Shown here in pieces: positions 3,717-64,000 of a stretch of DNA of 64,000 nt (position 1 is the first letter of the stretch; every line of letters starts with the position of its first letter). Source of the stretch: a bacterium (GTDB lineage: Bacteria; Zhuqueibacterota; Zhuqueibacteria; Residuimicrobiales; Krinioviventaceae); contig CAXXFV010000015.1 of assembly GCA_963674595.2 (NCBI GenBank), positions 316,692 to 380,691 on the forward strand, written 5' to 3'. The translations under genes were made by a program, and so were the position numbers. The notes beneath the pieces were generated by a model, which saw only the letters and a list, made by a program, of their open reading frames with translations, did no database searches and was not told the origin of the DNA.

Positions 3717-3785
3717 GCTTGTTACCTTTTCTCAAAGATTTTTATATTGGGCCTTATTTTATTCTGTTAAATATTGAGGCAGTCT

Positions 3786-4742: not shown

Positions 4743-4779
4743 AGCGCTTGATAATATCATATGTAATTTAAGGAAACAC

Positions 4780-5748: not shown

Positions 5749-5783
5749 TGACGTGCTAGTTTTATATTGATATGAGGAAACAC

Positions 5784-6749: not shown

Positions 6750-6785
6750 TAACGTGCTTAATACTAATATAATATGAGGAAAAAC

Positions 6786-7777
6786 ATGAGATTTTCAACA
6801 ACCATATTATTATTGATTTTAATGATGGGATGCCTGTACGCCCAGGTCTCCAACGTGCGGGTGCAGCAGCGCACGGACGGTACTTTTATGGTTGATATCT
6901 GGTACGATTTTAACAACCCTCAAGGGTATGATAACGAAATCACGGTCAAAGCATCTGACGATAACGGCGCAAGCTGGAACCTGTACTGCATTAGCCTCAC
7001 CGGCGACCTGGGTGAGAACATTACCGCCGGCACAGACAAGCACATAGTGTGGGATTTTTATGCCGACAATCCCAATATGAGCGGCAGCCAGTTCAAAGTG
7101 TGTGTGCTTTATTCTTTTTATAGCACCATGACCGGCAATGACGGCACGGTCTACAAAACCGTCAAGATTGACGACCAGTGGTGGATGGCTGAAAATTTAA
7201 GAGAGACTCAATATCGTGATGGAACCAGCATAAAAGAAATAGCAGATAGTTTTTATTGGCCTCTCGGTTATTCAGGCCGGTGTGCATATGAAAACGTTGA
7301 AAGTAATGCTGATACGTATGGCTATTTATATAATTGGTATGCTTGTGACGATGACCACCAAATTGCCCCCCGGGCTGGCATATGCCAACAGATAGTGATT
7401 GGAAAGAACTGGAACGCTCCCTGGGCATGAGTGAAAGTAACGTGAATGCTACCTATAGGCCTGATAGCCGTGAAGGCAGTAAACTCGCCGGTCGTGCTGA
7501 TTTGTGGTGGGGAGGTGGTCTTTTGGAGACTGATGCCAACTTTGATGTTAGTGGTTTTTGCGCGGTGCCAGGCGGTTACCGCAACTACGATTATGAGGGT
7601 GATTTCACCCAAAAAAATTACAAGGCCCGTTTTTGGACCGCTTCGGAGGAAGATGAAATTCACATATATGACCCTTCTTACGCGTGGTATCGCGGGTTGG
7701 ACCATACGAATGCATATCTCCACCGTTCATATACCTATAAGGAGCATGGTTTTTCTATTCGCCTGGTCAAAGATTAA
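6786..7777 (+). pseudogene. FISUMP domain protein, copy 4, split by a 1-bp frameshift in a C6 run (7366-7371)
   Basis: ORFs 6774..7430 and 7382..7777 carry the N- and C-halves. Adding one C restores IAPPGWHMPTDSDW and a 993-nt gene. May be a sequencing error. Confidence 0.8.
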
Positions 7778-19128: not shown

Positions 19129-20079
19129 ATGTATAAAATATTTGGGTTCCTTATTTCCTTTTTAATAATTCCAGGTTGTCTTTTTTCTCAGGTGCAATCA
19201 GATTATAATCCTATGAACATCGGCAACTATTGGATTCAGCATACAAACACCCTTTTTGATGGATATAATCCAACAACCTTTAGAATGGAAATCGAAGGAA
19301 TTGACCTGATTAATGGAATAGAATATTTTAGGATGAAACAAGAACAGACAGTAGATGATGGTTCTAAAAAACCTTCTGTGTGGTATATTTGGACGGGTCA
19401 AAATTCTAAAGGTGGATTGTTGGGAGCTTTTGGCACCAGTTCCGATATAGATTCAGCATTTATTTATGATCCACCGGTTGTCTCGTTTCCAAAGGACGCA
19501 AATAGTATAGGCTATTCATGGAAATATTTTATGCCTGGTACGGGAAACGGTGGTCAAAATTTTTCCAATGAAATTATAAGTTACACGGAAACAGTCAAGG
19601 TGCCGAGTGGAGCATACAAAAATTGTATGAAAATCAGTACTATTATTACAGATACATCGGGAACAACAACCCAAACATATAACCATTATTATGCTCAGGG
19701 AGTTGGACAAATATTAAATGAAGGGTGGAGTTCCTGGGGAGGTGATTATAAATTTGAACTGACAGAGTATAATGTTCAAACCTCTGTAATTGTCGGAAAA
19801 TCATTAAATAATCCAGATAATTTTAAACTATGCCGGAACTATCCCAATCCGTTTAATCCAAAAACTGTTATTCAATACCAAATACCAAACTCGACAAATG
19901 TTTCGTTAAAAGTATATAATGTTCTTGGTAAAGAAATAGCTACTTTGGTTGACCAATACCAGTCCTTCGGAAATCACTCGATAAAATTTGATGCGACTAA
20001 TCTGCCATCGGGTATTTATTTCTATAAACTTAGGACCGCCGGCTACTTGGAAACGAAAAAGATGCTGCTTTGTAGATAA
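19129..20079 (+). CDS. Secreted hypothetical protein with T9SS type-A-like CTD
   Basis: Signal peptide LFS-Q; ETVKVPSGAYKNC and YYAQGVG motifs; NYPNPFNPKT...LPSGIYFY; AGGAG RBS. Confidence 0.8.
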   Translation: MYKIFGFLISFLIIPGCLFSQVQSDYNPMNIGNYWIQHTNTLFDGYNPTTFRMEIEGIDLINGIEYFRMKQEQTVDDGSKKPSVWYIWTGQNSKGGLLGAFGTSSDIDSAFIYDPPVVSFPKDANSIGYSWKYFMPGTGNGGQNFSNEIISYTETVKVPSGAYKNCMKISTIITDTSGTTTQTYNHYYAQGVGQILNEGWSSWGGDYKFELTEYNVQTSVIVGKSLNNPDNFKLCRNYPNPFNPKTVIQYQIPNSTNVSLKVYNVLGKEIATLVDQYQSFGNHSIKFDATNLPSGIYFYKLRTAGYLETKKMLLCR

Positions 20080-38907: not shown

Positions 38908-40182
38908 TTATTCTTCGCGAACAAGCCTGTACTCGCCGGTACCGCGTCGGTCTGAAAAAATGTAACGCCGGTTGATATCCTGATAATACCAGATTTCGGC
39001 AGCCGGCATATTCATTTGTGTCGGTTGCCGGTCCAGTTGGTCGGGTGGACCGTTTTTAATATAAATTCTACCACGATCAGTCATCCAGCCTTCGCGACCG
39101 CTTGCAACTTCGGTAAAATTTTTATTTGCAAAATCAATTCTAAAGAAAAATTCCTGTTTCAGTTCGTTTGCTGTTGTCTCGGGTGTGGGGTCTCGTTCTT
39201 TCCAAAACTCGTCATACAGTTTTTGCTGCTCATTTTCAGGCGCTTCCTGAATCTGGTCGATTGTTTTTTTATGGGCAATCAATCGCAATTGTTCGATGGC
39301 AACCTGTAAATTTGCTTTTTTTACTCCAAGGTTTGCCCAATGAACATTAAAGTTTTTATCCAATTCAACATGCTGATTACCCTGTTGTGCTCTTATCGTT
39401 AAATTATATTCTCCGGGTTTTGAAAGATATTGTTTAAACGATAAAATTTGAGGCAAAACATTATGCCCGGCGCTTCGAACCGTATTTTCCTGATAGATCA
39501 AATCGTCATGAGCGTTTTTAATTTTATAAAACAGATGAATGCTGTCTGAAGGTGTGGGATTATAAATTTCAAAATAACAGGCAAATGCGGAATTTATTTT
39601 GTTAAAAGTATTCATCAGGTTGGGTTGATATGTAATGCTGTCATTTTGTTCGTTAAAGGCATCAATAAAAACCAGGTCGCTTAATTGTAAACGATCTTTT
39701 GCAAAGGACTTGATTTCCAATTCGTCTTCTCTCATTATATTATGTTTTGCATCAGCATCTATGAGCCGCAGAACATAACGATATTTTCCGGGTTTTAATA
39801 ATGTGCTCAACATATGCTTGTGCTGCATTGTACGGTCATTTGTTTTTATAAATGAACCAACAGAAACCTTGTTTTTAACGTGCTGTTCTGTCAGTGCTTC
39901 ATTTTTTTTATTATAAATGATAAAGTTGATTTCATATTCTGCGTTATAACTGTTCTCATCTGTTTTTATAAAAGTGAGAATATCATTTACTAAGGAGATG
40001 TGAATATCCACCCGGGTTTGCGATTCATCTGTTGTGTCTGCGAACTGATATATATTATACAAAAATAATTCAGATCCAAACATACCGGAATGAGGACCAC
40101 CTGGTCCCATTGGGCCCCTTCTTTGTGCAAAAGAAGTTGAATAAATTATAAGAAACAGTAATAAAAATCGTAGTAATTTCAT
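38908..40182 (-). CDS. GWxTD domain-containing protein
   Basis: FWKERDPTPET; GWMTDRGRIYIKNGPPD; EIWYY; signal peptide. Confidence 0.88.
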   Translation of the reverse strand: MKLLRFLLLFLIIYSTSFAQRRGPMGPGGPHSGMFGSELFLYNIYQFADTTDESQTRVDIHISLVNDILTFIKTDENSYNAEYEINFIIYNKKNEALTEQHVKNKVSVGSFIKTNDRTMQHKHMLSTLLKPGKYRYVLRLIDADAKHNIMREDELEIKSFAKDRLQLSDLVFIDAFNEQNDSITYQPNLMNTFNKINSAFACYFEIYNPTPSDSIHLFYKIKNAHDDLIYQENTVRSAGHNVLPQILSFKQYLSKPGEYNLTIRAQQGNQHVELDKNFNVHWANLGVKKANLQVAIEQLRLIAHKKTIDQIQEAPENEQQKLYDEFWKERDPTPETTANELKQEFFFRIDFANKNFTEVASGREGWMTDRGRIYIKNGPPDQLDRQPTQMNMPAAEIWYYQDINRRYIFSDRRGTGEYRLVREE

Positions 40183-50838: not shown

Positions 50839-51653
50839 TTAACTTTTAATAGCGCCTGCTGTTATGCCCTGAATGAATTGTTTTGTGGCAAACAGAAAGA
50901 TAATTATTAATGGGAGCGACGCTATGGTATATCCGGCAAACAGCTCTCCAAAATTCGTATATCCGGTTGCATAGGCTGTTGCGAAACGCATAATACCTAC
51001 TGTAAGGACCGTAACGCTTTCATCCGTGGTCGTTACCAGCGGCCAGATAAAATTATTCCATACTGCCAGGGAACTGACAATGGCAACAATACCAAAAACC
51101 GGCCGGCTCATGGCCGTGCCGATGTACCAGAATTGCTGAAAATATCCGGCGCCGTCAATGCGAGCGGATTCGAATAATTCTTCCGGCAGTGATTGAAAAA
51201 AGTTGTGAAAAATATAAATAGAAAGTACCTGACCGCCGGAGATATAGGGCAAAATCATAACCCAGAATGTATTTAACAGGTTTAGATTTTTAACCACCAT
51301 AAATGAGGGAACTAGTGTCAGCACCCAGGGAACCATCATAAGCACAATAATGCCGTAATATAATATTCTTTTGCCGGGAAAATTAAACCTGGCAAAAACA
51401 AAACCGGTCAACGCTCCCAGGAAAACAATTCCTGAAACAGAAACAAGGGTTACAAAAATACTGTTCCAGATGTATTTGGATATGGTGGAATAAACCTCCG
51501 TATAGTTTTCTAAATGAAGCGGCCATGTTGGAAGCCAAAAGGAATGGTAAAACTGGAACAGTGATTTAAATGATGAAAAAATCATATACACAAACGGAAA
51601 GAATGTTAAAACAATAAAAAAAGTAAATAATAACCGAAAGAGTATTTTTTCAT
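50839..51653 (-). CDS. Carbohydrate ABC transporter permease (MalG-like); 5' end frameshifted
   Basis: ELFESARIDGAG EAA motif; WNNFIWP. Likely ATG at 51653 is out of frame with ORF 50839..51591. Confidence 0.8.
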
Positions 51654-51654
51654 T

Positions 51655-52560
51655 TTATTTCCAACATGGTTCTATTTTGCTGGAATTCCTGTTCTGTTTA
51701 AAAAATTTATTGCTGAGTATGGTAAAAATGAGCATCATAATAAACAACACAACACCGATTGAACAGGCATATCCCATTCGATTATAGGTAAAGCCGCTGA
51801 AAAACATATACAAACCGGTAGCATTGTCTCGTAGCCGGGCCGCCGTCACCGGTTAATACGTAGACAATTTCAAAACCCTGTAAAACGGAAATGATGGTTA
51901 ATACAAACAACAATTTGACCTGTGATAAAATAAGCGGCAGATGTATTTTAAAAAAATATGCCAAAATTTAGCGCCGTCAATCATGGCCGATTCCATTAAT
52001 GACGTGGGTATATTGTTTAATCCGGCATAGTAAACCAGAATATTAAATCCAATTGCAAATGGAAATCCGACAAAGGCTATAGCTGTCAACGCTGTTTTTG
52101 GGTGACTCAGCCATCCGTAAATCCATTCCGGTTTGCCGATGGCTTCCAGAAAAGCTGTTAAAATACCGGCATCCGAATAAATATATTTCCACAACACCCA
52201 AATAACAACAGCGGAATAAGCATGGGGATGACGAAAAGAATACGTAAAAAATAGTTCCATTTTGATTTTACGGCGTATATCATTTCCGCACGATTAAAGG
52301 AATGGTCATATTCACGATAATAATAAAAATCAAAAGTTTGCTTCATGTTGAGCATACTTTTTAAAAACACAGGGTCACGGAAAAGTTCTTTAAAATTTGC
52401 CAAACCAATAAAAGCCGATTTTCCGCCGATGTCCCATTCAAAAAACGAGCGCAAAACCGCCAGAAATGCCGGATAATAGTTAAAAATTATCAAGAATATA
52501 AAGGTTGGGGCAATTAATCCATATAACGGAAAATACCTATTGAATTGTCGCCGCCCGTTT
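51655..52560 (-). pseudogene. Carbohydrate ABC permease (MalF-like), broken into four frames
   Basis: Fragments NYYPAF..FIGLANF, YYAGLNNIPTSLMESAMIDGA, HLPLI..YVLT.DGGP and RMGYACSIG occur in different frames; 5' boundary approximate. Confidence 0.75.
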
Positions 52561-53725
52561 TCCTGCCATTTTTTTTCATATTCTGAAAGTCCATTTTTCA
52601 GTGTTTATTTTTTCATTAAAATAGCTGCTAAAATTGTTTTCGATATATATTAAATAACCTTCTAAAGAAATTCCGTCATTCAGATAAAGGTCCATCATTC
52701 GGGTCCAGTTGGATTTTGTGCCTGGCATCAAAACTTTCCATCCATTTTACGGCGCAATATCTTCTTTTAAATATTTCATTAAAAGGTTCAAGCTCTTTCA
52801 ACACGTTAACATCTTTAACATTCGGCAGCATCATTTTTGCTTCATTAATACTTTTTCGATATTTTGCGGGGCTGTTAGAACATTAAAAAGTCAACGACCT
52901 GTTCCAGGTGATTATAAATTAGTGCAGAATTGGTTACATGCAGTTGTACGGCAGATCCTCCGATAACAGAGGCTTGTACGCCGACTGCAAATTTTGATGT
53001 TTCTTTGGTTATGGGCGGCAAGTAAAAAATACCCCATTCAAAGTCAATATACGGATCAAGTGTTAATCTTCGGGTAAACCAGCTTCCATCCCAAACCATG
53101 GCTGCACGTTGACTGAGAAAAAGTCTTGCAGAATCTGTGTTTTTCATTTCTTTTGACCAGTACTTGCGCCACTGTTTTAGCAGTTTGGTTGTTTCCACCC
53201 ATCGTGGATCATTTCGTGTAAAATACCCTTTTTGAAAAAGAAACGCCAGTTCCTGAATCGTCAGGTAATGTGTCATATATTCAGATTGGCTCTCCATGGA
53301 TTCTTCAACGTCCAGCTTTTCGATAATATCATAATACAGCATGTCAAAAATAACATCCAGTCCCCAGTTGGCCACCAGATTTGGTGAGGACGCCAACGGG
53401 TGTGATGTATGGGGCAGCCAGTTTTTCCTGGAGTAACATAAACTCCTGCCAGGTTTTAGGGACCCTGAGGTTATATTTTTTAAACAGATCTTTGTTATAA
53501 AATATGGCTGTTTCAACAATGTCCATAGACAAACAATAGAGTTTTCCATTTGGGGCGCGTTTTGCATTGACCAAAGCGAGGTTGAGAAAAGAATCCATCC
53601 ATCGTGTGTTGTCTTTTATGTATGGATTGGGACGTTCCAAAAATTCATCCAGCGGAATATACCACCCTTTTGGAATATCCTGCCAGGTAATTTCAGCATT
53701 TTGGGCGATAACGTCCGGCGCAATT
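52560..53725 (-). pseudogene. Sugar ABC solute-binding protein, frameshifted and 5'-truncated
   Basis: IAPDVI..IPLDEFLERPNPY..IFYNKDLFKKY..PKTWQEF and LFLSQRAAMVWDGSW..FEWGIFYLPP lie in different frames; no signal peptide or N-terminus; boundaries approximate. Confidence 0.75.
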
Positions 53726-53841
53726 CTTGAACACTCCAAGGCGGCATATGCAAATGCCTGGTCATTAGTTATGGAGCAACTGTTAAGAGCGAGATAACCT
53801 TTTGGATTTCTACCCTTTGTCGAGAGGACTAAATTCGTTTT

Positions 53842-54066
53842 ATGGCAAAAATGAGAAAATGCCGGATTCTTATCACCGGTGCGGACGGCTTTATCGGCTC
53901 CCATTTGACTGAAGTGCTTCTGACCAAAGGCGCAACGGTCAGTGCCTTCAAGCGGTACAATTCCTTCAACAACTGGGGTCGGTTGGAAGTGATTCCGTCC
54001 CGTGAAAACCTCGAAGTGGTGCGCGGTGACATTCTGCTTCCCCATTTTTGCAAGATAAATTGCTAA
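53842..54066 (+). pseudogene. N-terminal fragment of an NAD-dependent 4,6-dehydratase (LegB-like)
   Basis: ILITGADGFIGSHLTE...YNSFNNWGRLE...GDI, then a stop after about 74 aa. Confidence 0.7.
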
Positions 54067-54338
54067 ATTTATTCCGGAATGGACCATTTTGCTCAATTTC
54101 CCTGAAATTCAAAGGTCTGGAGTATGAAACGTAGAAGCTGGTGGGAATCGGAGAAAATATGCTGACAAAGCGCCAACATTATGCTTTACGCTTTCAAAAC
54201 AAACTATGAACTCATTCGAGACAATGTTGAAGCATGGTTCCAGCGTTGAGCCGGCAAAATGGAAGCTGTAAAAAACGCAACAAAACCCGTCAAAAAGGAA
54301 TTCTGTTGATGAGCAGCCCATGTGAGAGGCAGCGACTT

Positions 54339-55511
54339 ATGAAAATGAAACCCAAAAAGACCATTTCTTATGGACACCAGTGGATTGATGAGACCGATAT
54401 TGAGCAAGTCTCAAAAGCCCTGAGGGCTGATTTTATAACCACCGGACCCGTGGCTGAGGAATTCGAGAATGATTTGTGCGAGTTGACTGGAGCAAAGCAC
54501 GCGATCGTATGTTCAAATGGTACAACGGCACTTCATTTGGCCTGTCTGGCGCTAGGAATTGATGAGAATTCCTTGGGTGTCACTTCTCCAATTACCTTTT
54601 TGGCTTCTGCCAATTGCGTCGAGTTTTGCAATGGTCGTGTGGATTTCATCGATATCGACCCTCACACTTTATGCCTTTCTCCTGAAAGGTTGGAAGAATA
54701 CTGTGAACAAACGGCTGTTCCTGATGTTTTAATCCCTGTGGATTTTGCAGGTGTTCCGGCTGATCTCCCTTCAATAAGGGACTTGTCGCATAAATACGGC
54801 TTCAAAATTATTGAGGATGCTGCTCATTCAATCGGTACAACCTACACCCATAATGATAAACTTTTTCATTGCGGAGGATGTGCACATACAGACCTATCGA
54901 TTTTTTCTTTTCATCCCGTTAAAACGATCACCACCGGTGAAGGTGGGGCTGTTTTGACAAACGATGATGCCATGGCCGATAGAATAAGACGAATGCGAAG
55001 TCATGGCGTGATGAGGCACTCGGATTTACTCGGTCGAAATGATGGCCCCTGGTACTATGAGATGGGTGAACTAAATTTCAACTGCCGTATAACGGATTTT
55101 CAATGCGCATTGGGAAGATCGCAATTGAAAAAGCTACCAAGCTTTAAGCGCCGCAGAAAGGAAATTGTAGAACGCTACAATGCCGCCTTCAGTAATAATC
55201 CAGCCTTAATCACACCGGAAGAGTTTAAAAACGCCTCTCCATGTTACCATCTCTATCCTCTCCAATTTAGAGGAGGAAAAGCAGATAGATACAGAGTGTT
55301 TTCCAGCTTGGCTGGTACCCGGATTTTCTGCCAAATCCATTATATTCCGGTTTACTGGCAACCTTATTACAATAACAAATATGGTTACCCCATTGGAAAA
55401 TGTCCGGAAGCTGAAAACTATTATGCCAGGTGCCTTAGCCTTCCCTTGTACCCCGCCTTGAATGACGATGAAGTTGATTTTATCATCCAGAGGGTTCTTG
55501 AATTCCTGTGA
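54339..55511 (+). CDS. pseC: UDP-4-amino-4,6-dideoxy-N-acetyl-beta-L-altrosamine transaminase (DegT family)
   Basis: ISYGHQWIDE; SNGTTALHLA; EDAAHSIG; FSFHPVKTITTGEGG; WYYEM; context next to pseB. Confidence 0.88.
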   Translation: MKMKPKKTISYGHQWIDETDIEQVSKALRADFITTGPVAEEFENDLCELTGAKHAIVCSNGTTALHLACLALGIDENSLGVTSPITFLASANCVEFCNGRVDFIDIDPHTLCLSPERLEEYCEQTAVPDVLIPVDFAGVPADLPSIRDLSHKYGFKIIEDAAHSIGTTYTHNDKLFHCGGCAHTDLSIFSFHPVKTITTGEGGAVLTNDDAMADRIRRMRSHGVMRHSDLLGRNDGPWYYEMGELNFNCRITDFQCALGRSQLKKLPSFKRRRKEIVERYNAAFSNNPALITPEEFKNASPCYHLYPLQFRGGKADRYRVFSSLAGTRIFCQIHYIPVYWQPYYNNKYGYPIGKCPEAENYYARCLSLPLYPALNDDEVDFIIQRVLEFL

Positions 55512-55598: not shown

Positions 55599-56078
55599 AT
55601 GATTTCAGGGCACTTCAGGCTGCTAAATTGGCTCAATAGAAGAAAGCGGTTTTCTATGCTCAAAGACAAATACCGACTTGAAACCCTTCCCCTTACGGAA
55701 GAATTTCTGCGCGAAAAGCGTCTTATTCAGGAAAGGGGAGAACTTGTGCTTCTATCTGACGGTGAAGAGATTCGGCACATTACGTTTTTTACACTTAAAC
55801 CTGGCCCAGGTTATTTCAGGGGCGGCCACTATCATCGGAAAAAATCTGAAAGTTTTTACCTTATATCCGGGCATGCCCGGTTGCACCTGGTGGAGGTTGA
55901 AACAGGTGAAGAATCGGAAATCGATGTCTTTCCAGGCCAAAGGGTGACGATTTTTTCCATGTGTGCACACAAATTCAAAGCCATAAGCGAGGTGCATGTC
56001 ATTGAATATTATTCAAAGCCCTTCGATCTGTCGGACGACATCCGGTTTGAAGGCTTTAAAGGGGGGAAAGAATGTTGA
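55599..56078 (+). CDS. Cupin (WxcM/FdtA-like sugar isomerase) protein
   Basis: ERGEL; RGGHYHRKKSESF; AHKF. Confidence 0.7.
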   Translation: MISGHFRLLNWLNRRKRFSMLKDKYRLETLPLTEEFLREKRLIQERGELVLLSDGEEIRHITFFTLKPGPGYFRGGHYHRKKSESFYLISGHARLHLVEVETGEESEIDVFPGQRVTIFSMCAHKFKAISEVHVIEYYSKPFDLSDDIRFEGFKGGKEC

Positions 56079-57058
56079 ATAACAAAAACGTCCTTATTAC
56101 CGGCGGCACAGGGTCATTTGGGAAAAAAGCCGCCGAAATCATCTTAAGACGCTTTCAGCCCAACAAGCTCATCATTTTCAGCCGAGACGAACTCAAGCAA
56201 TTTGAGATGGCGCAGCAATTCCCACACACTACCTACCCCTGCCTCCGTTACTTTATCGGCGACGTCCGGGATAAAGAACGGCTGGATCGGGCGTTTCAGG
56301 GGGTGGATTACGTGATTCACGCCGCAGCCCTGAAACAGGTTCCGGCTGCGGAGTACAATCCCTTTGAGGCGGTGAAGACCAACATCCTCGGCGCCCAGAA
56401 CGTGATCAACGTGGCCATAGACAAAAAGATCAAACGGGTGATTGCACTCAGCACGGACAAAGCGGCCAATCCCATTAACCTCTATGGGGCAACTAAGCTT
56501 TGTTCGGATAAGCTTTTTATTGCCGGTAATGCCTATGTCGGCCGCGACCACACCCGTTTCGGAGTCGTTCGGTATGGTAATGTGCTGGGCAGTCGCGGAA
56601 GCGTGATCCCCTTTTTCCTCGAGATGCGAGAGACAGGTGTCCTTCCCATTACCGATTCTCGTATGACGCGATTTTGGATTACGTTGGAAAAGGGAGTGGA
56701 TTTTGTTCTTCAATCTCTGGAAAGGATGGTAGGTGGAGAAATTTTTGTTCCCAAGATCCCCAGCATGACCATTGTAGACCTGGCCCAGGCCGTTGCTCCG
56801 GAGTGCAAAACTGAAATAGTCGGCATCAGGCCAGGAGAAAAATTGCACGAGGTGATGGTGCCCAAAGACGATGCCCGAAACACTGCCGAATTTTCGGATC
56901 ATTATGTGATAAAACCGCAGTTCCGGTACTTCGACCGACGTTTCAACAATAGCGATTCAAAATCGGTCGCGGATGATTTTGAATACAATTCTGGCACCAA
57001 TCCTTGGAGGCTAAGTATTGAGGAAATGCAGAAGATGATACAAGAATTGAGAGTATAG
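56072..57058 (+). CDS. pseB: UDP-N-acetylglucosamine 4,6-dehydratase (inverting)
   Basis: ITGGTGSFG; FSRDELKQ; HAAALKQVPAAEYNP; STDKAANPINLYGATK; GIRPGEKLHE. Confidence 0.95.
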   Translation: MLNNKNVLITGGTGSFGKKAAEIILRRFQPNKLIIFSRDELKQFEMAQQFPHTTYPCLRYFIGDVRDKERLDRAFQGVDYVIHAAALKQVPAAEYNPFEAVKTNILGAQNVINVAIDKKIKRVIALSTDKAANPINLYGATKLCSDKLFIAGNAYVGRDHTRFGVVRYGNVLGSRGSVIPFFLEMRETGVLPITDSRMTRFWITLEKGVDFVLQSLERMVGGEIFVPKIPSMTIVDLAQAVAPECKTEIVGIRPGEKLHEVMVPKDDARNTAEFSDHYVIKPQFRYFDRRFNNSDSKSVADDFEYNSGTNPWRLSIEEMQKMIQELRV

Positions 57059-57377: not shown

Positions 57378-58073
57378 ATGAATGTTGCGATTATCCCCGC
57401 GCGTGGCGGTAGCAAGCGCATCCCCAAGAAAAACATCCGGTTGTTTTGTGGAAAGCCCATGGTAGCATGGCCCATTGATTCTGCAAGGCAGTCGGGTCTG
57501 TTTGAGCGGATCATCGTATCCACAGATTCCGAGGAAATCGCCCAAATTTCCAGAGATTGTGGAGCGGAGACACCCTTCATGCGGCCTGCGCAATTGTCCG
57601 ATGACTATACGGCTACAAGGCTGGTTATAAACCATGCCATCGGTCAGATCACAAAGCGATATGCTCGGCCCGACCATGTTTGCTGTATATATCCAACTGC
57701 TCCGTTTGTAAGCCCTTCGGATTTGAAAAAGGCATTCGAATTATTGAATAAAATGGATTGCCAGTTTGTATTTACGGCCACAAGTTTTCCTTATCCCATC
57801 CAACGGGCTTTTAAGCTGACGCATGGTGGTCGGCCTGAGATGTTCTTCCCGGAGTTTCGGCAAACAAGGTCGCAGGATTTAGAAGAAGCGTTCCATGATG
57901 CAGGCCAGTTTTACTTCGGAAAAACGCAGGCCTTTCTGGATGACATCCCAACATTCTCTCATGCATCTATACCTTTTATTCTGCCCCGCTACAGGGTCCA
58001 TGACATAGACACACAAGATGACTGGGACTATGCTGAGCTTGTATTCAATGCCTCTACCAGCATGAGAGAATGA
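57378..58073 (+). CDS. pseF: Pseudaminic acid cytidylyltransferase
   Basis: IIPARGGSKRIPKKNI; CCIYPTAPF; RSQDLEEAFHDAGQFY; DIDT. Confidence 0.9.
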   Translation: MNVAIIPARGGSKRIPKKNIRLFCGKPMVAWPIDSARQSGLFERIIVSTDSEEIAQISRDCGAETPFMRPAQLSDDYTATRLVINHAIGQITKRYARPDHVCCIYPTAPFVSPSDLKKAFELLNKMDCQFVFTATSFPYPIQRAFKLTHGGRPEMFFPEFRQTRSQDLEEAFHDAGQFYFGKTQAFLDDIPTFSHASIPFILPRYRVHDIDTQDDWDYAELVFNASTSMRE

Positions 58074-58145: not shown

Positions 58146-58492
58146 GTGATGAAATTGGCTGCAAAAAGGAACAAGGGGCGTAATTTCACTGCCGATATTC
58201 AACTGATCGGTATGCCCTATCATTTTGCTGTGAGATTCAAAGACACGGGAAAGCTCCGTTCTTTCGACCTGCTTTCTGTTTTTCAGCAGGAGCCGATTCG
58301 TTGGGGCGTGCTGATGCTCGGTGTCCGTAATTTCTGTCTGGCTCACACAGAAAAAGACATCGCCGAAACCCTGGAGGCCTATTCAAAGGCATTTCAATCT
58401 CGGTCAAAGAAGCTATCAACACTGATTCCTTATCGGGGATTCTAATGGGAAAAAAGTTTTTTTCGATTTTCAAAAGAGACAGCTCCCGTTAA
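58146..58492 (+). pseudogene. C-terminal remnant of a glutamate-1-semialdehyde-aminomutase-like (class III) aminotransferase
   Basis: FQQE.IRWGVL...NFCLAHTEKDIAETLEA; continues in another frame (EAINTDSLSGILMGKKFFSIFKR); no N-terminal or PLP-lysine region. Confidence 0.6.
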
Positions 58493-58493
58493 C

Positions 58494-59546
58494 ATGCGAA
58501 AAGTTGTTTTCAGGGTTGATGCTGGCGGAGAGCTCGGCTTTGGTCATGCCGTCCGGAGCATTTCGGTGGCCCGATATTTGAAGGAATTTTTTGAGATTGA
58601 GAGCCTATTTGTTTCGCGATACCATCCGAAACTCGAAGAAAAATACACACACGGAAAGATCGATCACTGTTTTACGTGTGAGGTTGCCGAAGAAACAATT
58701 CTAAATGAAATTCGCATGAATTATTCCGGACAGGTCCTATTCATTGATAAACTCTATCCCTACAGTCGAGAGACTATCCAGAGTATTAATCAAAATCTTC
58801 ATGTTATCATGTTCCACAATGATTGCGACGGTATGTTTGAGAGCGACTATGCGATCTTTCCGGCAGCTCACCTGCCTTCGGCCCTCATCAACAGCGACAG
58901 ATGGAAGGATTCAAGCGCGAATCTACTATATGGCCCGGATTATGTTATCATTAATGACACCGTTAAGCGGTTTCTTTCTCAACAGACTGTGCGTGTCGGG
59001 CAAATCCAAAGCATGGCTATTACGACGGGGTCCAGTGATCCAAAAGGTATGCTGCTTCAATTAATACGCTGGCTGAATGAAAGTGATGTAGTTGTTAATG
59101 TCAACGCCTTGGTAGGTTTTGATTTCAGTGGAAGGCGCGAGTTAAACAAATTGATGCCCTTTTTGAAGCCTTCGATTAATGTCAGGAACTTTAATTTCAC
59201 AGACCTTTTTGCGGCCAAGCTGGCTGTTGCCGCCTTCGGTGTAACGGCATATGAATTGATTTATGCGGGTGTTCCTTTGCTGACAATCGGTCATATTCCC
59301 AAGAATGCCTTGGGTAGTAGGATACTTCAGAAGCGTTACGGCTGCAACCACCATTTGGGCTGGCTGGAAAAGCTGACTAAAGCTGAATTCATTTCTGCAG
59401 TTAGGCGCCTGTGGTATGATCCGGGGGCGCTCTCCGCCATGCAGCAGAAGCAAAGCGGGCTTATCGATGGAAATGGCTTGTCACGTATTGGAAATATTTT
59501 ATATGATCTTTGCAAAGAGAGAATCTACTCGTTGCCGATTGCGTGA
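58494..59546 (+). CDS. pseG: PseG/SpsG-like UDP-sugar hydrolase (GT-B fold)
   Basis: VFRVDAGGELGFGHAVRS; LYGPDYVII; ITTGSSDP; AFGVTAYEL; IDGNGLSRI. Confidence 0.75.
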   Translation: MRKVVFRVDAGGELGFGHAVRSISVARYLKEFFEIESLFVSRYHPKLEEKYTHGKIDHCFTCEVAEETILNEIRMNYSGQVLFIDKLYPYSRETIQSINQNLHVIMFHNDCDGMFESDYAIFPAAHLPSALINSDRWKDSSANLLYGPDYVIINDTVKRFLSQQTVRVGQIQSMAITTGSSDPKGMLLQLIRWLNESDVVVNVNALVGFDFSGRRELNKLMPFLKPSINVRNFNFTDLFAAKLAVAAFGVTAYELIYAGVPLLTIGHIPKNALGSRILQKRYGCNHHLGWLEKLTKAEFISAVRRLWYDPGALSAMQQKQSGLIDGNGLSRIGNILYDLCKERIYSLPIA

Positions 59547-59568
59547 ACATTAAAGGAGAGGCGCATCC

Positions 59569-60024
59569 ATGAAAAATGTTGACCCGTATTATAGAAAACT
59601 CGGTGATTTTAAGAAGGGGCAGGTTTTTAGTCATTATCCGCACAAAACAGTTCTGGAAAGCGATAACAACCTGTTTTGTCTTCTAACCATGAACCATCAC
59701 CCTATTCACAGTGATGTTGAATTCGCCGAAAAGAGCCAGCATGGCAAAATTCTCGTAGTTGGGACATATATTTTGAGCCTTGTTGTGGGGATGTCGGTGC
59801 CTGATATTTCGGGTGCTGCGATTTCGAACCTTGAATATGAAAGGATTACGCACGATGGCCCGGTATTCATCGGTGATACGATTAGAGCAGAATCGGTGAT
59901 CTTGGACGTTAGACGTTCTAAGAGCAAACCCGATCGTGGCATTGTCTATGTTGAGACAGTTGCTTATAATCAACGGGACGAAAAGATCTTGACCCTGAGG
60001 CGCCGAGTATTGATACCGGTATAA
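59569..60024 (+). CDS. MaoC-family (R)-specific enoyl-CoA hydratase/dehydratase
   Basis: ESDNNLFCLLTMNHHPIH; PVFIGDTI; SKSKPDRGIV. Confidence 0.88.
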   Translation: MKNVDPYYRKLGDFKKGQVFSHYPHKTVLESDNNLFCLLTMNHHPIHSDVEFAEKSQHGKILVVGTYILSLVVGMSVPDISGAAISNLEYERITHDGPVFIGDTIRAESVILDVRRSKSKPDRGIVYVETVAYNQRDEKILTLRRRVLIPV

Positions 60025-60063
60025 TTCGGAAATCGCTGTCATACAAATTGGTAGGAGGGGAAT

Positions 60064-60984
60064 ATGAGAAAACTAGATCATGAAACATTAATTATTCGTT
60101 CTTTTCTATTCGTACCTGGGCATATTGAAAAAATGCTTGTGAAAGCATCAGAATCGATTGCAGACTGTGTTGCCTTATGCCTTGAGGACGCGGTCCCCTA
60201 TGAGAAAAAGGAAACAGCGCGGAAAACCATTCGGAAAGTGCTTTCGGAAGGCATGTTTAGCGAGATAACCGTTTTTGTCCGCATAAATCCATTGGATACC
60301 GGCCTTACCCTCAAAGACTTGGAAGGTGTTGCATGCAAAGAGCTTGATGGATTTGTCTATCCCATGGCCTACGAACCGGACGACATCAAAAAATTTGATG
60401 CGCAATTGAGTCTGATGGAGGCGCACTTGGGCCTTCGTAGAGGGCATTTTTCCATTATCGTTCTAATTGAAACCCCACAAGCTGTTTTAAGAGCTTTCGA
60501 GATTGCAAACGCCTCTGATCGAGTAGTGGGTCTTCTTTTTGGGTGTGAAGATTATATGGCCGAAATGCAATCCCGTTACTCTAAAGAGGAAATGTCTCTG
60601 TTCACGCCGCGGTCATTGGTAGCGATGGCAGCACGGGCTGCCGGCGTCGAGCCCATTGATACTCCTTACGTGCGGGTTTATGATCTGGAAGGATTGCGAA
60701 GATTTGCGACCCTGGGTCGAGATTTAGGAATGTCCGGTATGTTGGTTATGTCTCCGAGACAGATTGATATTGTGCATGATTGTTACACACCTGATCAGGA
60801 AGAAATCGCCTATGCTTCTGAAGTCGTACAGTCGGCCAAAAAAGCCAAAGAAGAGGGCAGAGGGATTGTAATGGTGAATAATAAATTTGTTTCTCCTCCG
60901 ACGGTCAAACAGTCGGAGAAATTGATAGAACGGGTGGCAGCCATCGACAGTCTGGAGGCAGCCAGGAAGCAGGGATCCCAATGA
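60064..60984 (+). CDS. CitE/HpcH-family CoA-ester lyase (malyl/citramalyl-CoA lyase-like)
   Basis: RSFLFVPG; LEDAVP; VRINP; LIETP; FGCEDY; IDTPY; SPRQI. Confidence 0.88.
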   Translation: MRKLDHETLIIRSFLFVPGHIEKMLVKASESIADCVALCLEDAVPYEKKETARKTIRKVLSEGMFSEITVFVRINPLDTGLTLKDLEGVACKELDGFVYPMAYEPDDIKKFDAQLSLMEAHLGLRRGHFSIIVLIETPQAVLRAFEIANASDRVVGLLFGCEDYMAEMQSRYSKEEMSLFTPRSLVAMAARAAGVEPIDTPYVRVYDLEGLRRFATLGRDLGMSGMLVMSPRQIDIVHDCYTPDQEEIAYASEVVQSAKKAKEEGRGIVMVNNKFVSPPTVKQSEKLIERVAAIDSLEAARKQGSQ

Positions 60985-61637
60985 AAAACCTTGTCATTAT
61001 CGGTGGGATGGGAAATGGAACGGTGGTGGCATCAACCGTTGAGGATATCAATGATATCAACAAAGCATGGAGAATTATCGGATTTCTCAACGATTTCGAG
61101 ACAGAGCCCATCAACGAGTATCCGATTTTGGGCAAAATCGATAAAGAGGTTGCCCATCAACTGATCGAGGAGCGCAATGCGTATTTTTTCTATACATTGA
61201 TTTCAACCAAACTGAACCATAAGTTCATACATAAGTTGACAGATCTTGAAATACCCCCCGAACGTTTTGCCACTTTGATTCATCCCAGCGCAGTTGTCTC
61301 GAAGTTTGCAGAAATCGGTAACGGAGTATGCATACAACCGCTCGTGAGTGTCGGACCCAATGTGAAAATAGGTAATCATATTCAAATTTACGCCCAATGT
61401 TTGGTGGGGCACAATGCTGTTTTGGATGATTATAGCTATGTGGCCAATAACTCATGCATTGGTGCCCATGTTCATATGAAAAAAGGTGCCTATCTGGGAA
61501 CTAACTGCAGCCTCCTTGAAAACGTTACAATTGGCGAATGGGCACTTGTAGGAATCGGGGCGGTTGTTCTAAAGGATGTTCCAGCTTATACAAAGGTGGT
61601 GGGGAATCCAGCTAGAATCATCGGCAACGTTGAGTGA
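60981..61637 (+). CDS. NeuD/PglD-family left-handed beta-helix acyltransferase
   Basis: LVIIGGMGNG; TLIHPSAVVS; VGHN; hexapeptide repeats; VVGNPAR. Confidence 0.88.
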   Translation: MKNLVIIGGMGNGTVVASTVEDINDINKAWRIIGFLNDFETEPINEYPILGKIDKEVAHQLIEERNAYFFYTLISTKLNHKFIHKLTDLEIPPERFATLIHPSAVVSKFAEIGNGVCIQPLVSVGPNVKIGNHIQIYAQCLVGHNAVLDDYSYVANNSCIGAHVHMKKGAYLGTNCSLLENVTIGEWALVGIGAVVLKDVPAYTKVVGNPARIIGNVE

Positions 61638-61742
61638 CAGGTTCCTTATCTATTTGAGATTTCGGCTGCTAGTATTTGTAAGGAAATCAAAATTTTAAAG
61701 CAGTTAACTCATAAAGATTCAAGAGTAAAGATGGATTAAGTT

Positions 61743-62786
61743 ATGTATCTGGAAAAACATTGCATTAGTCTTCAGAGCGAGCCTTTCATTATCGCCGAGA
61801 TGTCGGGTAATCATAACCATTCTCTCGCTCGTGCCCTAGAAATGGTGGAGGCAGTGGCCGAAACAGGTGCCCATGCCCTGAAATTGCAGACCTACACTGC
61901 CGACACGATGACGTTGGATCTGGCCGAGGGAGAATTTTTTATAGACGACCCCAATAGCCTGTGGAAAGGGCAGGCTTTGTACAGCCTTTATCAAAAGGCG
62001 CATACACCATGGGAGTGGCATGAACCCATCTTCAAACGTGCGCGGGAACTGGGTTTGATTGCCTTCAGCAGTGCGTTTGATGAAACGGCGGTTGATTTCC
62101 TGGAGTCTCTGAACGTGCCCTGCTACAAGGTCGCCTCTTTTGAGAACACGGACATTCCCCTGATCCGCAAGATTGCAGCCACCGGAAAACCCATTATCGT
62201 TTCCACTGGGATGGCAACAGCTGCTGAACTGGATGAATCCGTTCATGCTGCGCGTGCAGAAGGCTGTAAGGATATTGTATTGCTTAAGTGCACAAGTACA
62301 TACCCAGCATCGCCTGAGAATTCAAATCTTCTTACCATCCCTCACATGCGGGACCTATTTAATTGTGAGATGGGCTTGTCGGATCATACGATGGGAATTG
62401 GTGTTGCGGTCGCTGCAATAGTTTTCGGTGCAACAGTTATGGAAAAACATTTTACGCTGTCAAGGAAGGACGGAGGTGTGGATGCGGCTTTTTCCCTTGA
62501 GCCCGGTGAAATGAAACAATTGGTCGAGGAAACGAAAAGGGCCTGGCAGGCCCTTGGCCAGATCAGTTATGGGCCCAGCGACGGAGAACAAAAATCTCGA
62601 ATGCGTCGGCGTTCTATTTATATTGTTAAGGATATGCAATATGGAGAGTCCTTTACGACTAAAAACCTGCGACGAATCCGTCCCGGCCACGGTCTTCCAC
62701 CGAAGTACTACGATATGCTTATTGGCCGAAAGGTAAAGAAAGCGGTTAAACGGGGTACGCCGATGAGCTGGGATTTGGTCGCCTAA
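61743..62786 (+). CDS. pseI: Pseudaminic acid synthase
   Basis: IIAEMSGNHN; KLQTYTADT; AHTPWEWH; KVASFE; GLSDHT; EKHFTL; C-terminal SAF domain. Confidence 0.93.
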   Translation: MYLEKHCISLQSEPFIIAEMSGNHNHSLARALEMVEAVAETGAHALKLQTYTADTMTLDLAEGEFFIDDPNSLWKGQALYSLYQKAHTPWEWHEPIFKRARELGLIAFSSAFDETAVDFLESLNVPCYKVASFENTDIPLIRKIAATGKPIIVSTGMATAAELDESVHAARAEGCKDIVLLKCTSTYPASPENSNLLTIPHMRDLFNCEMGLSDHTMGIGVAVAAIVFGATVMEKHFTLSRKDGGVDAAFSLEPGEMKQLVEETKRAWQALGQISYGPSDGEQKSRMRRRSIYIVKDMQYGESFTTKNLRRIRPGHGLPPKYYDMLIGRKVKKAVKRGTPMSWDLVA

Positions 62787-62898: not shown

Positions 62899-63018
62899 TT
62901 TGACAAACCGCCTACCGCTGCCAAGCTTCAAGACTATGAAGCTTTGCTGCCCGGGAATATTACCCCAAAGCAACTGGACCTTCCACGACTGGTGGAGTGC
63001 GGTTAACAAGGCGCTTAC
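62899..63018 (+). mobile_element. IS66-family remnant: TnpC C-terminus plus right inverted repeat
   Basis: FDKPPTAAKLQDYEALLPGN resembles the IS66 TnpC end. Sequence ends ...GGCGCTTAC at 63018 (reverse complement GTAAGCGCC, the IS66 terminus). Confidence 0.7.
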
Positions 63019-63020
63019 GA

Positions 63021-64000
63021 ATGTTGTTTAAAGATATCTTTTCAATAATTCAACATATCGAAAGTAACCTTGACGTTGCTAACTTCAAGCTTGCTGGAAT
63101 ACACGTATGGCCACATTTGCGCAACCGTTTAGTTGGTGGATTGGTTTCCGAGGCGGAAAACCCAAGTTTGCAGGGTCACGGCCACTCTGAAAGAATCTTA
63201 AAAAAGGCAAGTCTGCTACCTTCCGGTCTCTTGAATTTGATCAGGGCTCTGAGTGTGGACACAGTCTCAGGGCATGGAAAGAAGCGAGGAGCCGATATCG
63301 TTTTTTTGTCCAACTCTACCAGAAGGACCCTTAGACTTCCTTCAGGGTGGTATGATATTCTTATAGATCCAATAATCGACTATCTTGAGAGTAAGGGGAT
63401 CTCACATTTTACTTTTGAAAATACGCAGACACTGCAACCTGTCTATCCAAAATACAGAGTGGTTAGATCTGCCCTCCCAAGCTCGGTTCTGGCATATGCA
63501 TTTTCTGTTTTTAACCTGAGTTGGTATAAGCCGCCGAAGGAGTTTGAAAGATGTTTTAAGGATTATAAAGAGCTGCTTTATGCCCAAGGTTTATCAACTC
63601 ACATTGTTAGCAGGCGTAGCCTGCTAATTGAGTTTCTTTATATAAGACACCTAAGCAGTTTCTACAAAAGACAGATTAAGAAAATAGATCCCAGGTTGAT
63701 CGTTGTTGTGGGTTACTATGGTTATGTTGGAATGGCGTTATGTTATGCTTCCAGAGTTCTTGGAATAATTAGTGCTGATATACAGCACGGCGTGCAGGGA
63801 AAGTACCACCCGGCGTACGGATCTTTCTTTATGATTCCCAGTCAAGGATTTAATACGATGCCGAATGTCTTTTTGACCTGGTCGGAAAAAGAGCGTGATT
63901 CTATACAGACCTGGACAAAAAAGACCCAAAATATACGAGCCATTGCGACGTGCAACCCTTTTCTGCAGAAATTTCTATCGGATAATGCCCTTTCAATGTA
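63021..64000 (+). CDS. Surface-polysaccharide protein, probable GT-B/nonulosonate transferase-like; runs off the window (absent from the ORF track)
   Basis: Manual translation is open to the end: MLFKDIFSIIQHIE...WPHLR...GYYGYVGMALCYA..LGIISADIQHGVQGKYHPAY...PNVFLTWS. Confidence 0.75.
   Translation, partial: MLFKDIFSIIQHIESNLDVANFKLAGIHVWPHLRNRLVGGLVSEAENPSLQGHGHSERILKKASLLPSGLLNLIRALSVDTVSGHGKKRGADIVFLSNSTRRTLRLPSGWYDILIDPIIDYLESKGISHFTFENTQTLQPVYPKYRVVRSALPSSVLAYAFSVFNLSWYKPPKEFERCFKDYKELLYAQGLSTHIVSRRSLLIEFLYIRHLSSFYKRQIKKIDPRLIVVVGYYGYVGMALCYASRVLGIISADIQHGVQGKYHPAYGSFFMIPSQGFNTMPNVFLTWSEKERDSIQTWTKKTQNIRAIATCNPFLQKFLSDNALSM

Follow-up and report, generated by a model that had tools for sequence, protein, structure and literature searches.

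The last 64 kb of a contig from a bacterial genome of the Krinioviventaceae (C15:316692-380691, assembly GCA_963674595.2) close with a pseudaminic acid (Pse) biosynthesis cluster. The cluster works like a Pse pathway whose acylation step has been exchanged, and the genes now in that place belong to a sugar N-acylation module that is widespread and uncharacterised. The step of the acetyltransferase PseH would be supplied by three linked genes, hereafter the trio, which encode a MaoC hydratase, a CitE-like lyase homologue and a PglD/NeuD-type left-handed beta-helix (LbH) acyltransferase. In the reading that we hold with moderate confidence, the trio functionally replaces PseH and the product is CMP-Pse5Ac7(acyl), in which a C4-C6 dicarboxylic acyl group (malyl/fumaryl, citramalyl/itaconyl/mesaconyl or similar) stands where the usual product has 7-N-acetyl.

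The window, that is, the whole 64,000-nucleotide stretch analysed, shares its last base with the contig and belongs to a genome of 6.6 Mb in 37 contigs that is 97.56% complete. The Pse cluster occupies the last ~10 kb, and from position 54234 onward every gene is on the + strand. Protein families were assigned with Pfam and NCBIfam models, scored against their curated cut-offs. The genes of the pathway and of the trio are the following.

54234..55511, + strand: PseC, UDP-4-amino-4,6-dideoxy-N-acetyl-beta-L-altrosamine transaminase (TIGR03588, 438.6 bits, cut-off 423.5; Pfam DegT_DnrJ_EryC1)
56072..57058, + strand: PseB, inverting UDP-GlcNAc 4,6-dehydratase (TIGR03589, 532.9 bits, cut-off 407.75)
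57378..58073, + strand: PseF, CMP-pseudaminic acid synthetase (TIGR03584, 328.8 bits, cut-off 205.7)
58494..59546, + strand: divergent PseG-like UDP-sugar hydrolase with a predicted GT-B fold (TIGR03590, 64.6 bits, cut-off 153.55)
59569..60024, + strand: MaoC-type hot-dog hydratase/dehydratase (Pfam MaoC_dehydratas, PF01575, 68.6 bits; MC_hydratase, 54.9 bits)
60064..60984, + strand: CitE-like coenzyme A (CoA)-ester lyase homologue (Pfam HpcH_HpaI, PF03328, 143.3 bits)
60981..61637, + strand: putative PglD/NeuD/VioB-type LbH sugar N-acyltransferase (TIGR03570, NeuD/PglB/VioB, 156.5 bits, just under the 160.8 cut-off)
61743..62786, + strand: PseI, pseudaminic acid synthase (TIGR03586, 500.9 bits, cut-off 340.25)

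PseC, PseB, PseF and PseI all exceed the NCBIfam equivalog cut-offs. The stop codon of the CitE-like gene and the start codon of the LbH gene overlap as ATGA (60981-60984), and AGGAG-type Shine-Dalgarno-like motifs precede the MaoC and CitE-like genes. An earlier sequence-only reading of the window had listed pseC, pseB, pseF, a PseG-like gene and pseI, with the trio between the PseG-like gene and pseI and the ATGA overlap within it, and each item of that inventory was confirmed.

The same reading had found no pseH in the window. This was borne out and, with the exception of DNA past the contig end, extends to the whole genome: a six-frame profile search returned seven matches at E <= 0.01, none of them on the window's contig and none above the 93.1-bit cut-off. 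Below-cut-off matches were also obtained in 14 of 14 control genomes, as expected of generic GNATs. The best match in the genome (44.9 bits), at the start of contig C19, was considered as the missing PseH and rejected, since it scored higher as RimJ (54.3 vs 44.9 bits) and no sugar genes adjoin it; its neighbours, labelled from their translations, are a REP-type transposase-like open reading frame (ORF) and one further unscanned ORF. The co-occurrence of the trio with the absence of pseH, to which the sequence-only reading had drawn attention, recurred elsewhere. In the sole other testable genome with the trio inside a Pse cluster (G041, a Pelagibacteraceae single-cell genome of only 1.1 Mb that is possibly incomplete), PseH gave 0 matches at E <= 0.001. 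Likewise, no PseH was found at E <= 1e-12 among 68 ORFs of 10 metagenome loci with the PseG-like subfamily, a scan that mostly omitted ORFs already assigned by tblastn to PseB, PseC, PseG-like or PseI.

The MaoC and CitE-like genes form a conserved unit well beyond Pse clusters. More than 1,000 homologues of the CitE-like protein were found, of which the best 120 are 54-100% identical and stem from widely separated bacteria, among them Desulfocicer, Desulfotignum, Desulfuromonas and Bacteroidota. When one genome was scanned for each species, 80 loci were retained, and the close-homologue set comprised 27 of these (L010-L036), with CitE at least 42% identical. MaoC adjoins CitE in 27 of the 27 loci, and an N-acyltransferase abuts the pair in 24, either as an AAC(3)-like gene directly downstream (17 loci) or as an LbH gene directly upstream (7 loci). 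Two of the remaining three loci are cut by a contig end within ~0.5 kb, and in the third, L036, no acyltransferase was found by the queries. The AAC(3)-like assignment was confirmed with Pfam PF02522 in L012, L016 and L030, to which the others are 50-90% identical. Most module loci also hold DegT aminotransferases, with nucleotidyltransferases, flippases and glycosyltransferases nearby, and the host genomes, as their records are titled, belong to Thermodesulfobacteriota, Pseudomonadota, Bacteroidota, Chloroflexota, Zixibacteria, Ignavibacteria, Krumholzibacteriia, LCP-89, Victivallales and others. Candidate cultured carriers of the AAC(3)-like form are Carboxylicivirga sp. A043, Thermophagus xiamenensis DSM 19012 and Anaerophaga thermohalophila, and a CitE homologue is present in Desulfuromonas acetoxidans.

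Recurrence of the same gene set in so many independent loci places the arrangement far beyond chance. These counts uphold the earlier proposal that MaoC, the CitE-like protein and the acyltransferase form one unit. Because one enzyme pair is shared, through conserved linkage, by two unrelated acyltransferase folds, it can be argued that MaoC and the CitE-like protein make the acyl-CoA donor. The pair therefore looks like a portable acyl-donor module that serves two unrelated acyltransferase families in many phyla.

In the window, the partner of this pair is the LbH protein. It matched the Pfam families PglD_N (PF17836, 30.9 bits, cut-off 23.4) and Hexapep (53.3 bits), and its closest solved structure was VioB (7txp), aligned over residues 1-216. 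Its homologues include proteins of Aquimarina rubra and Flexithrix dorotheae. The window LbH is 60-71% identical to the LbH encoded next to the PseG-like gene in 14 metagenome loci and 41% identical to that in L108; identity to the LbH of module loci without Pse genes was 30-41%. A match at E <= 1e-50 was present in one of 401 sampled Bacteroidota genomes, where LbH follows MaoC, a second CitE-like gene and CitE. The window LbH is a putative sugar N-acyltransferase that would functionally replace PseH. The window CitE, by comparison, belongs to the clade that non-Pse loci usually carry (46-74% identity) and shares only 38-44% identity with its counterpart in most Pse-linked loci. With an LbH of the Pse type and a CitE of the non-Pse type, module parts have evidently been reshuffled between loci.

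The trio was found in other Pse clusters. In L063, from a Pelagibacteraceae single-cell genome, the order is PseG-like, MaoC, CitE and LbH, with PseC, PseI, PseF and PseB nearby. A metagenome scan with a PseG-like profile gave 41 loci, 26 of which have a PseG-like protein at least 30% identical. The full trio lies next to the PseG-like gene in 11 of the 26, usually in the order MaoC-CitE-LbH-PseG-PseI, and a partial trio in six, where it is cut by a contig end or broken by insertion sequence elements. No trio was visible in nine; of these, only L103, L114 and L124 have at least 3 kb on either side. A FabH-like ketosynthase III gene was also seen near the PseG-like gene, between it and pseI in L113 (L113:9078-10251) and L114 (L114:4358-5531) and downstream of both in L103 (L103:11434-12411). 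The FabH-like gene is followed by a 101-residue ORF in L113 and L114, and L113 has both the FabH-like gene and the trio. This suggests that the FabH-like ketosynthase is another acyl-supply system for Pse.

The PseG-like protein scored below the PseG cut-off, and no Pfam match was obtained for it, but the TIGR03590 alignment spans model positions 2-267 of 280. Among ~5.8 billion non-redundant proteins, a word-indexed search of limited sensitivity, which undercounts, returned 31 relatives at 33-63% identity; more distant matches were PseF-PseG fusions, several of them labelled 'SpsF' by their sources. A profile built from 25 of the relatives had a single PDB match, Campylobacter jejuni PseG (3hbm, E 2e-5), in an alignment that includes the N-terminal G-x-G-H stretch. 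An AlphaFold2 model (predicted local distance difference test score 91.2) has a GT-B fold. It superposed on MurG (1f0k) with Z 25.4 and on C. jejuni PseG (3hbn_A) with Z 22.0 and a root mean square deviation of 3.6 Å over 273 of 282 residues, the latter ranking third of 48,161 chains in a VIA-align wide structure search. Foldseek against the PDB returned many GT-B glycosyltransferases, and PseG was not among the matches listed. On the combined profile and model evidence we read the protein as a probable true but divergent PseG. Its distribution suggests that the subfamily accompanies non-standard acylation generally, and most often the trio. The claim that divergence of PseG goes with altered N-acylation thus gained support, as LbH and the PseG-like protein travel with the MaoC-CitE pair (the 11 full trios) and an exchange of both steps has a precedent in Acinetobacter baumannii, discussed below.

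Evidence on the nature of the acyl group comes from the MaoC protein, which by sequence appears to fit its superfamily and no equivalog. The best NCBIfam match, RipB/Ich, reached 128.5 bits against a cut-off of 340, and the 2-methylfumaryl-CoA hydratase model 54.6 bits against 560. The closest solved structures were mesaconyl-CoA/beta-methylmalyl-CoA (de)hydratases (4e3e, 8hgn), whose motifs YQNTARVH and FQNTAKVH align with TMNHHPIH in the window protein. MaoC Asn42 matches the Asn of both; the generic MaoC structure 1q6w has in that position an Asp, which we take to be the catalytic Asp of PhaJ-type enzymes. The TMNHHPIH motif, with H47 as the conserved His of the hydratases, is invariant in 12 of 12 aligned module MaoCs. 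These alignments would place MaoC with hydratases of dicarboxylic CoA esters and not with fatty-acyl ones, and a MaoC of the mesaconyl/itaconyl-CoA hydratase type indicates a C4-C6 dicarboxylic acyl group.

The CitE-like protein retains the Glu-Asp pair E41/D42, the Arg R73 and the Mg2+ ligands E136/D163 on an HpcH/HpaI TIM barrel. Its scores against curated models were 201.4 bits for citE (cut-off 443.4), 123.8 for RipC/Ccl (375) and 64.1 for haloarchaeal Mcl (500), and its closest PDB entries were malyl-CoA lyase (5ugr), CLYBL (5vxc), CitE (1sgj) and RipC (3qll). In all four PDB alignments Ser277 stands opposite the Asp of the [IV]-D motif, and a count of 36 residues past the conserved linker (Y241-T-P243 here, F263-T-P265 in the Rhodobacter enzyme) also reaches Asp299. 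A structural study of malyl-CoA lyase describes this lid Asp (MCLR Asp299, MCLC Asp318) as invariant in the CitE-like superfamily, save for a Glu in the malyl-CoA thioesterase clade, and proposes it as the catalytic residue that takes or gives the acyl-CoA alpha-proton (PMC3832036).

The substitution is a property of the whole module-linked clade, in which the lid Asp has become Ser, Gly or Ala followed by Pro-Pro. The lid residue of the 120 close homologues is Ser in 117 and Ala in one, with gaps in two, and that of 19 CitE sequences from module loci is Gly in 14, Ser in three and Ala in two. By comparison, 11 of 11 paralogues (31-38% identical) have Asp; these were taken from loci without a detected acyltransferase beside CitE, of which L044 and L054 have an adjoining MaoC-like gene. 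A quick unrooted maximum-likelihood tree of 60 sequences contains a branch (SH-aLRT 100) that sets the Asp-bearing paralogues apart from the rest, which fits a single loss of the lid Asp and is no proof of it. Apart from alignment gaps, D42, R73, E136 and D163 are kept throughout the 120 and 19 sequences, and E41 is kept in 111 of the 120 and in all 19. Residue 39 is Cys where the superfamily has Asp; the 120 homologues divide into 66 with Cys and 51 with Asp, and all 19 locus sequences have Asp. The superfamily Asp at this position (MCLR Asp42) hydrogen-bonds the catalytic Arg, according to the same paper (PMC3832036).

With the lid Asp lost, malyl- or citramalyl-CoA lyase chemistry is not to be assumed. 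As this defining feature is absent, the CitE-like protein was not classed as either lyase. That Ser, Gly and Ala are all tolerated at the lid position would fit, speculatively, a need for room over chemistry. A second CitE-like paralogue, 20-24% identical to that of the window, lies beside MaoC in six module loci (L104:5582-6394, L108:887-1708, L112:1231-2013, L118:3503-4345, L119:1803-2600 and L142:8249-9076). In three of the six the lid residue is Glu, and the catalytic Arg has given way to Asp or Glu. The window has no gene for this second paralogue.

A pathway that accommodates these observations would begin with PseB and PseC, which, as family membership shows, yield UDP-4-amino-4,6-dideoxy-beta-L-AltNAc. 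The CitE-like protein would condense a unit of two or three carbons, carried on CoA, with pyruvate, oxaloacetate or glyoxylate as the 2-oxo acid, and MaoC would interconvert the resulting beta-hydroxy-dicarboxylyl-CoA and its enoyl form. LbH would then move the acyl group onto the 4-amino group of the UDP-sugar, the nitrogen of which is N7 of Pse. The divergent PseG-like hydrolase would strip UDP from the bulkier product, as its co-variation with the trio and the A. baumannii precedent suggest, after which PseI would condense the sugar with phosphoenolpyruvate and PseF would activate the product with CMP, both steps again shown by family membership.

The choice of acyl group is narrowed by what the loci hold. 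No CoA ligase or CoA transferase was seen in the annotated module loci, so two enzymes could start from a common CoA ester in one way only: they would condense it with a 2-oxo acid and then dehydrate the product, which would give a hydroxy-dicarboxylic acyl group or its enoyl form. The strict presence of MaoC suggests a role for the dehydrated form, or for both forms in equilibrium. Pyruvate and oxaloacetate are universally available and would give citramalyl, itaconyl, mesaconyl or citryl-type groups. Whether most carriers have a source of glyoxylate is doubtful. Of five carrier genomes tested, one (a SAR11 cell) has a clear isocitrate lyase, genome G000 gave only a 42-bit partial match, and the other three, not all of them necessarily complete, gave none. 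An outright assignment of the acyl group as malyl was for this reason rejected, and MaoC would moreover have no role if malyl were the final group; the existence of natural N-malyl sugars is a point in favour of malyl. The sequence-only reading had held that the trio makes and transfers a hydroxy-dicarboxylic or enoyl group. The part of that claim which stands is the conserved unit with an acyltransferase, whereas the analogy with Mcl/Mch and Ccl/Ich on which it drew is weaker than was supposed, given the sub-cut-off scores and the lost lid Asp.

A more far-reaching form of the proposal is that the Asp-less CitE-like clade performs non-canonical chemistry, for example a condensation with a 2-oxo acid driven by malonyl-CoA decarboxylation, which would need no base for the enolate. 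With MaoC as obligate partner it would provide the sugar N-acyltransferases of many phyla with a dicarboxylic acyl-CoA that is anionic or a Michael acceptor, and in the window would lead to an undescribed Pse with a 7-N-dicarboxylyl group. We offer this as a tentative idea that is doubtful in its full extent.

No orthologue of the module CitE was found in 40 genomes of the window's family and order, where the best match was 36%; these relatives carry only a CitE paralogue of 31-36% identity, which is also found on contig C16 of G000. The G+C content is 45.9% in the cluster and 40.0% in the rest of the window. Given the missing orthologue and the deviant G+C, the Pse cluster was therefore horizontally acquired and the module is mobile. 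Three further features of the cluster complete its gene list.

55599..56078, + strand: small cupin protein (Pfam Polysacc_synt_C, 42.5 bits, cut-off 28.7; Cupin_2 under its cut-off)
58146..58445, + strand: C-terminal remnant, 99 residues, of a class-III aminotransferase (NF004856, positions 344-418 of 450 only)
62997..63998, + strand: ORF of at least 334 residues, 3' open at the contig end, with no Pfam or NCBIfam match

The remnant corresponds to the C-terminal fifth of a glutamate-1-semialdehyde-aminomutase-like aminotransferase and is probably a pseudogene deleted to a stub. Full-length counterparts lie directly upstream of the PseG-like gene in four loci (L103:5924-7993, L110:1515-3545, L115:5523-6851 and L120:5955-7979) and a few genes upstream of it in a fifth (L104:2961-4259). 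Some are fused to an N-terminal domain of ~240 residues, and tblastn matches in L103 and L107 share 58-66% identity with the remnant.

The cupin ORF encodes a stand-alone protein of 159 residues between pseC and pseB and overlaps the start of pseB by 7 nt. It matched the C-terminal part of WbcJ weakly (E 3e-8), and its PDB matches were generic cupins only. WbcJ is a reductase that acts on the same kind of 4-keto sugar as the PseB product, and the cupin could change the stereochemistry of the intermediate. No counterpart of the cupin ORF was found among any of the fetched genome and metagenome loci. For the ORF at 62997-63998, the nearest named ESM Atlas cluster was 'LIC12162 family transferase' at a score of 0.88, under the 0.9 level from which a match counts for more than a lead; as a lead only, the ORF is a candidate transferase that may use the CMP-sugar.

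Directly upstream of the cluster (50839-54096, - strand) are four ORFs of 36-38% G+C, two of which overlap each other. Two gave partial matches to ABC-transporter permeases and one a partial match to a solute-binding protein, and one matched no family; all four have the appearance of disrupted genes that border the insertion. Elsewhere in the window are four tandem paralogues with a Fib_succ_major domain (3774-7430, + strand), a protein with a type IX secretion system sorting domain (19129-20079) and a GWxTD-domain protein (38908-40182); in our reading these point to a host from the Fibrobacteres-Chlorobi-Bacteroidetes group.

Several findings weigh against a trio that supplies a dicarboxylic group to Pse. 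The scores of MaoC, the CitE-like protein and LbH all lie under equivalog cut-offs, the acyl group is reached by inference only, and without its lid Asp the CitE-like protein may not catalyse the assumed condensation at all. The aminotransferase remnant shows some decay of the cluster. The contig stops ~1 kb past pseI, so that a pseH could lie in the unassembled DNA beyond, and the trio-free loci L103, L114 and L124 show that the PseG-like subfamily is not bound to the trio alone. The LbH family, moreover, is annotated as acetyltransferases, and its closest solved relatives, VioB, PerB and PglD, are acetyl-CoA users by their entry names. LbH might accordingly be a non-GNAT acetyltransferase that replaces PseH, with Pse5Ac7Ac as the product and with MaoC and CitE serving elsewhere or carried as passengers. 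The acetyltransferase names of those relatives would then be explained, as would the label 'acetyltransferase EpsM' that the sources give to homologues, and a CitE-like protein without the proposed catalytic residue could be inactive as a lyase. Such a division of labour is hard to reconcile with a MaoC-CitE pair that abuts acyltransferases of two unrelated folds in 24 of 27 genome loci, with the overlap of the CitE-like and LbH genes or with a PseG that forms a distinct subfamily. The other CitE-like active-site residues are kept in nearly all of the 120 and 19 sequences, and the MaoC motif in 12 of 12; this conservation points to selection on catalysis. We consider 7-N-acetylation rather unlikely.

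MaoC enzymes include (R)-specific enoyl-CoA hydratases, and if the window MaoC hydrated crotonyl-CoA the acyl group would be (R)-3-hydroxybutanoyl and the product Pse5Ac7RHb, as in A. baumannii K42-type capsules. 3-Hydroxybutanoyl is the non-acetyl N-acyl group that the A. baumannii capsule database paper lists for Pse, and the module psaABCGHF manages there without MaoC or CitE-like genes (PMC9676051). This route would leave unexplained a CitE-like gene that co-occurs strictly (27 of 27 loci). The window MaoC also most resembles enzymes that hydrate dicarboxylic CoA esters and has Asn, as do 4e3e and 8hgn, where 1q6w has Asp; we judge the route unlikely. It might finally be argued that the Pse cluster is what is left of a transferred island, in decay and no longer functional, in view of the aminotransferase stub, the fragmented transporter ORFs just upstream, a G+C content unlike that of the flanking DNA and the absence of the cluster from every relative. 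All ten other genes are nevertheless open, with lengths as the family models expect where a model matches, and tight spacing and ribosome-binding sites are preserved, which makes wholesale decay very improbable. The dicarboxylic acylation of Pse by the trio accordingly remains the reading that we prefer.

Pse and other nonulosonic acids are surface decorations of flagella, capsules and O-antigens, where their N-acyl groups set antigenicity and likely affect phage recognition. If the prediction is true, a carboxylated or unsaturated acyl group adds a new charge or reactive handle at the cell surface, PseG and the PglD-type transferases each gain a new subfamily that accepts other substrates, and glyco-engineers gain enzymes for modified CMP-nonulosonates. 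As the proposed catalytic residue is missing, the chemistry of MaoC with the Asp-less CitE-like protein may differ from the textbook lyase reaction. We know of no malyl or similar Pse. A full-text search, which left uncovered most subscription journals, the main outlet for glycan structures, found no paper that ties MaoC/CitE-type genes to Pse or to sugar N-acylation, and no gene linked to natural malyl groups was found in the literature searched.

The canonical Pse pathway of C. jejuni and Helicobacter pylori runs PseB-PseC-PseH-PseG-PseI-PseF. The window shares with it PseB, PseC, PseI and PseF, all above cut-off, and a PseG-like GT-B hydrolase; it differs in that no GNAT PseH was detected, that LbH, MaoC and the CitE-like protein stand in its place and that PseG belongs to a separate, rare subfamily. 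A MaoC hydratase paired with a CitE-family TIM barrel is likewise found in Ich/Ccl (RipB/RipC, of itaconate degradation) and in Mch/Mcl, the mesaconyl-CoA hydratase/malyl-CoA lyase pair of the 3-hydroxypropionate bi-cycle and the ethylmalonyl-CoA pathway, and these two systems are the best curated-family and best PDB matches of the window pair. The window proteins, however, score far under the equivalog cut-offs, and the lid Asp is replaced by Ser/Gly/Ala and Pro-Pro. The module genes lie in glycan clusters, not in catabolic operons, with no CoA transferase seen in the annotated loci. The trio shares its logic with the anthrose operon antABCD of Bacillus anthracis and B. cereus, which encodes an enoyl-CoA hydratase, an aminotransferase and the LbH N-acyltransferase AntD: there, too, a hydratase makes a hydroxyacyl-CoA and an LbH enzyme loads it onto a 4-amino-6-deoxy sugar. 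In that operon, the hydratase is of another family and has no CitE-like partner, the sugar is a dTDP-hexose and not a nonulosonate precursor, and the acyl group is monocarboxylic.

In A. baumannii, PsaG and PsaH replace PsaD and PsaE in the module psaABCGHF, which is listed for Pse5Ac7(R-3-hydroxybutanoyl) (PMC9676051). As in the window, the PseG and PseH equivalents are exchanged together when the 7-N-acyl group is not acetyl; the window differs by two extra enzymes and a predicted dicarboxylic acyl group, whereas the A. baumannii module, as listed there, holds no genes that make an acyl-CoA. Natural N-(4-malyl) amino sugars are reported for Pseudoalteromonas rubra, Vibrio vulnificus and Shewanella algae, and amide-linked malic acid for Flavobacterium psychrophilum (PMC3210612). 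On that evidence, hydroxy-dicarboxylic N-acyl groups exist on bacterial amino sugars and, in our own reading of the chemistry, the N-(4-malyl) amide would be formed at the carboxyl that bears the thioester in malyl-CoA. Among the loci of the module, L012 combines the MaoC-CitE pair with a UDP-sugar dehydrogenase, and L016 with a GFO/IDH/MocA oxidoreductase, a DegT aminotransferase and an asparagine-synthase-type gene. These gene sets would fit a 2,3-diamino uronic acid of the GlcNAc3N(acyl)A(N) type, the class of sugar that bears malyl in Pseudoalteromonas and Vibrio.

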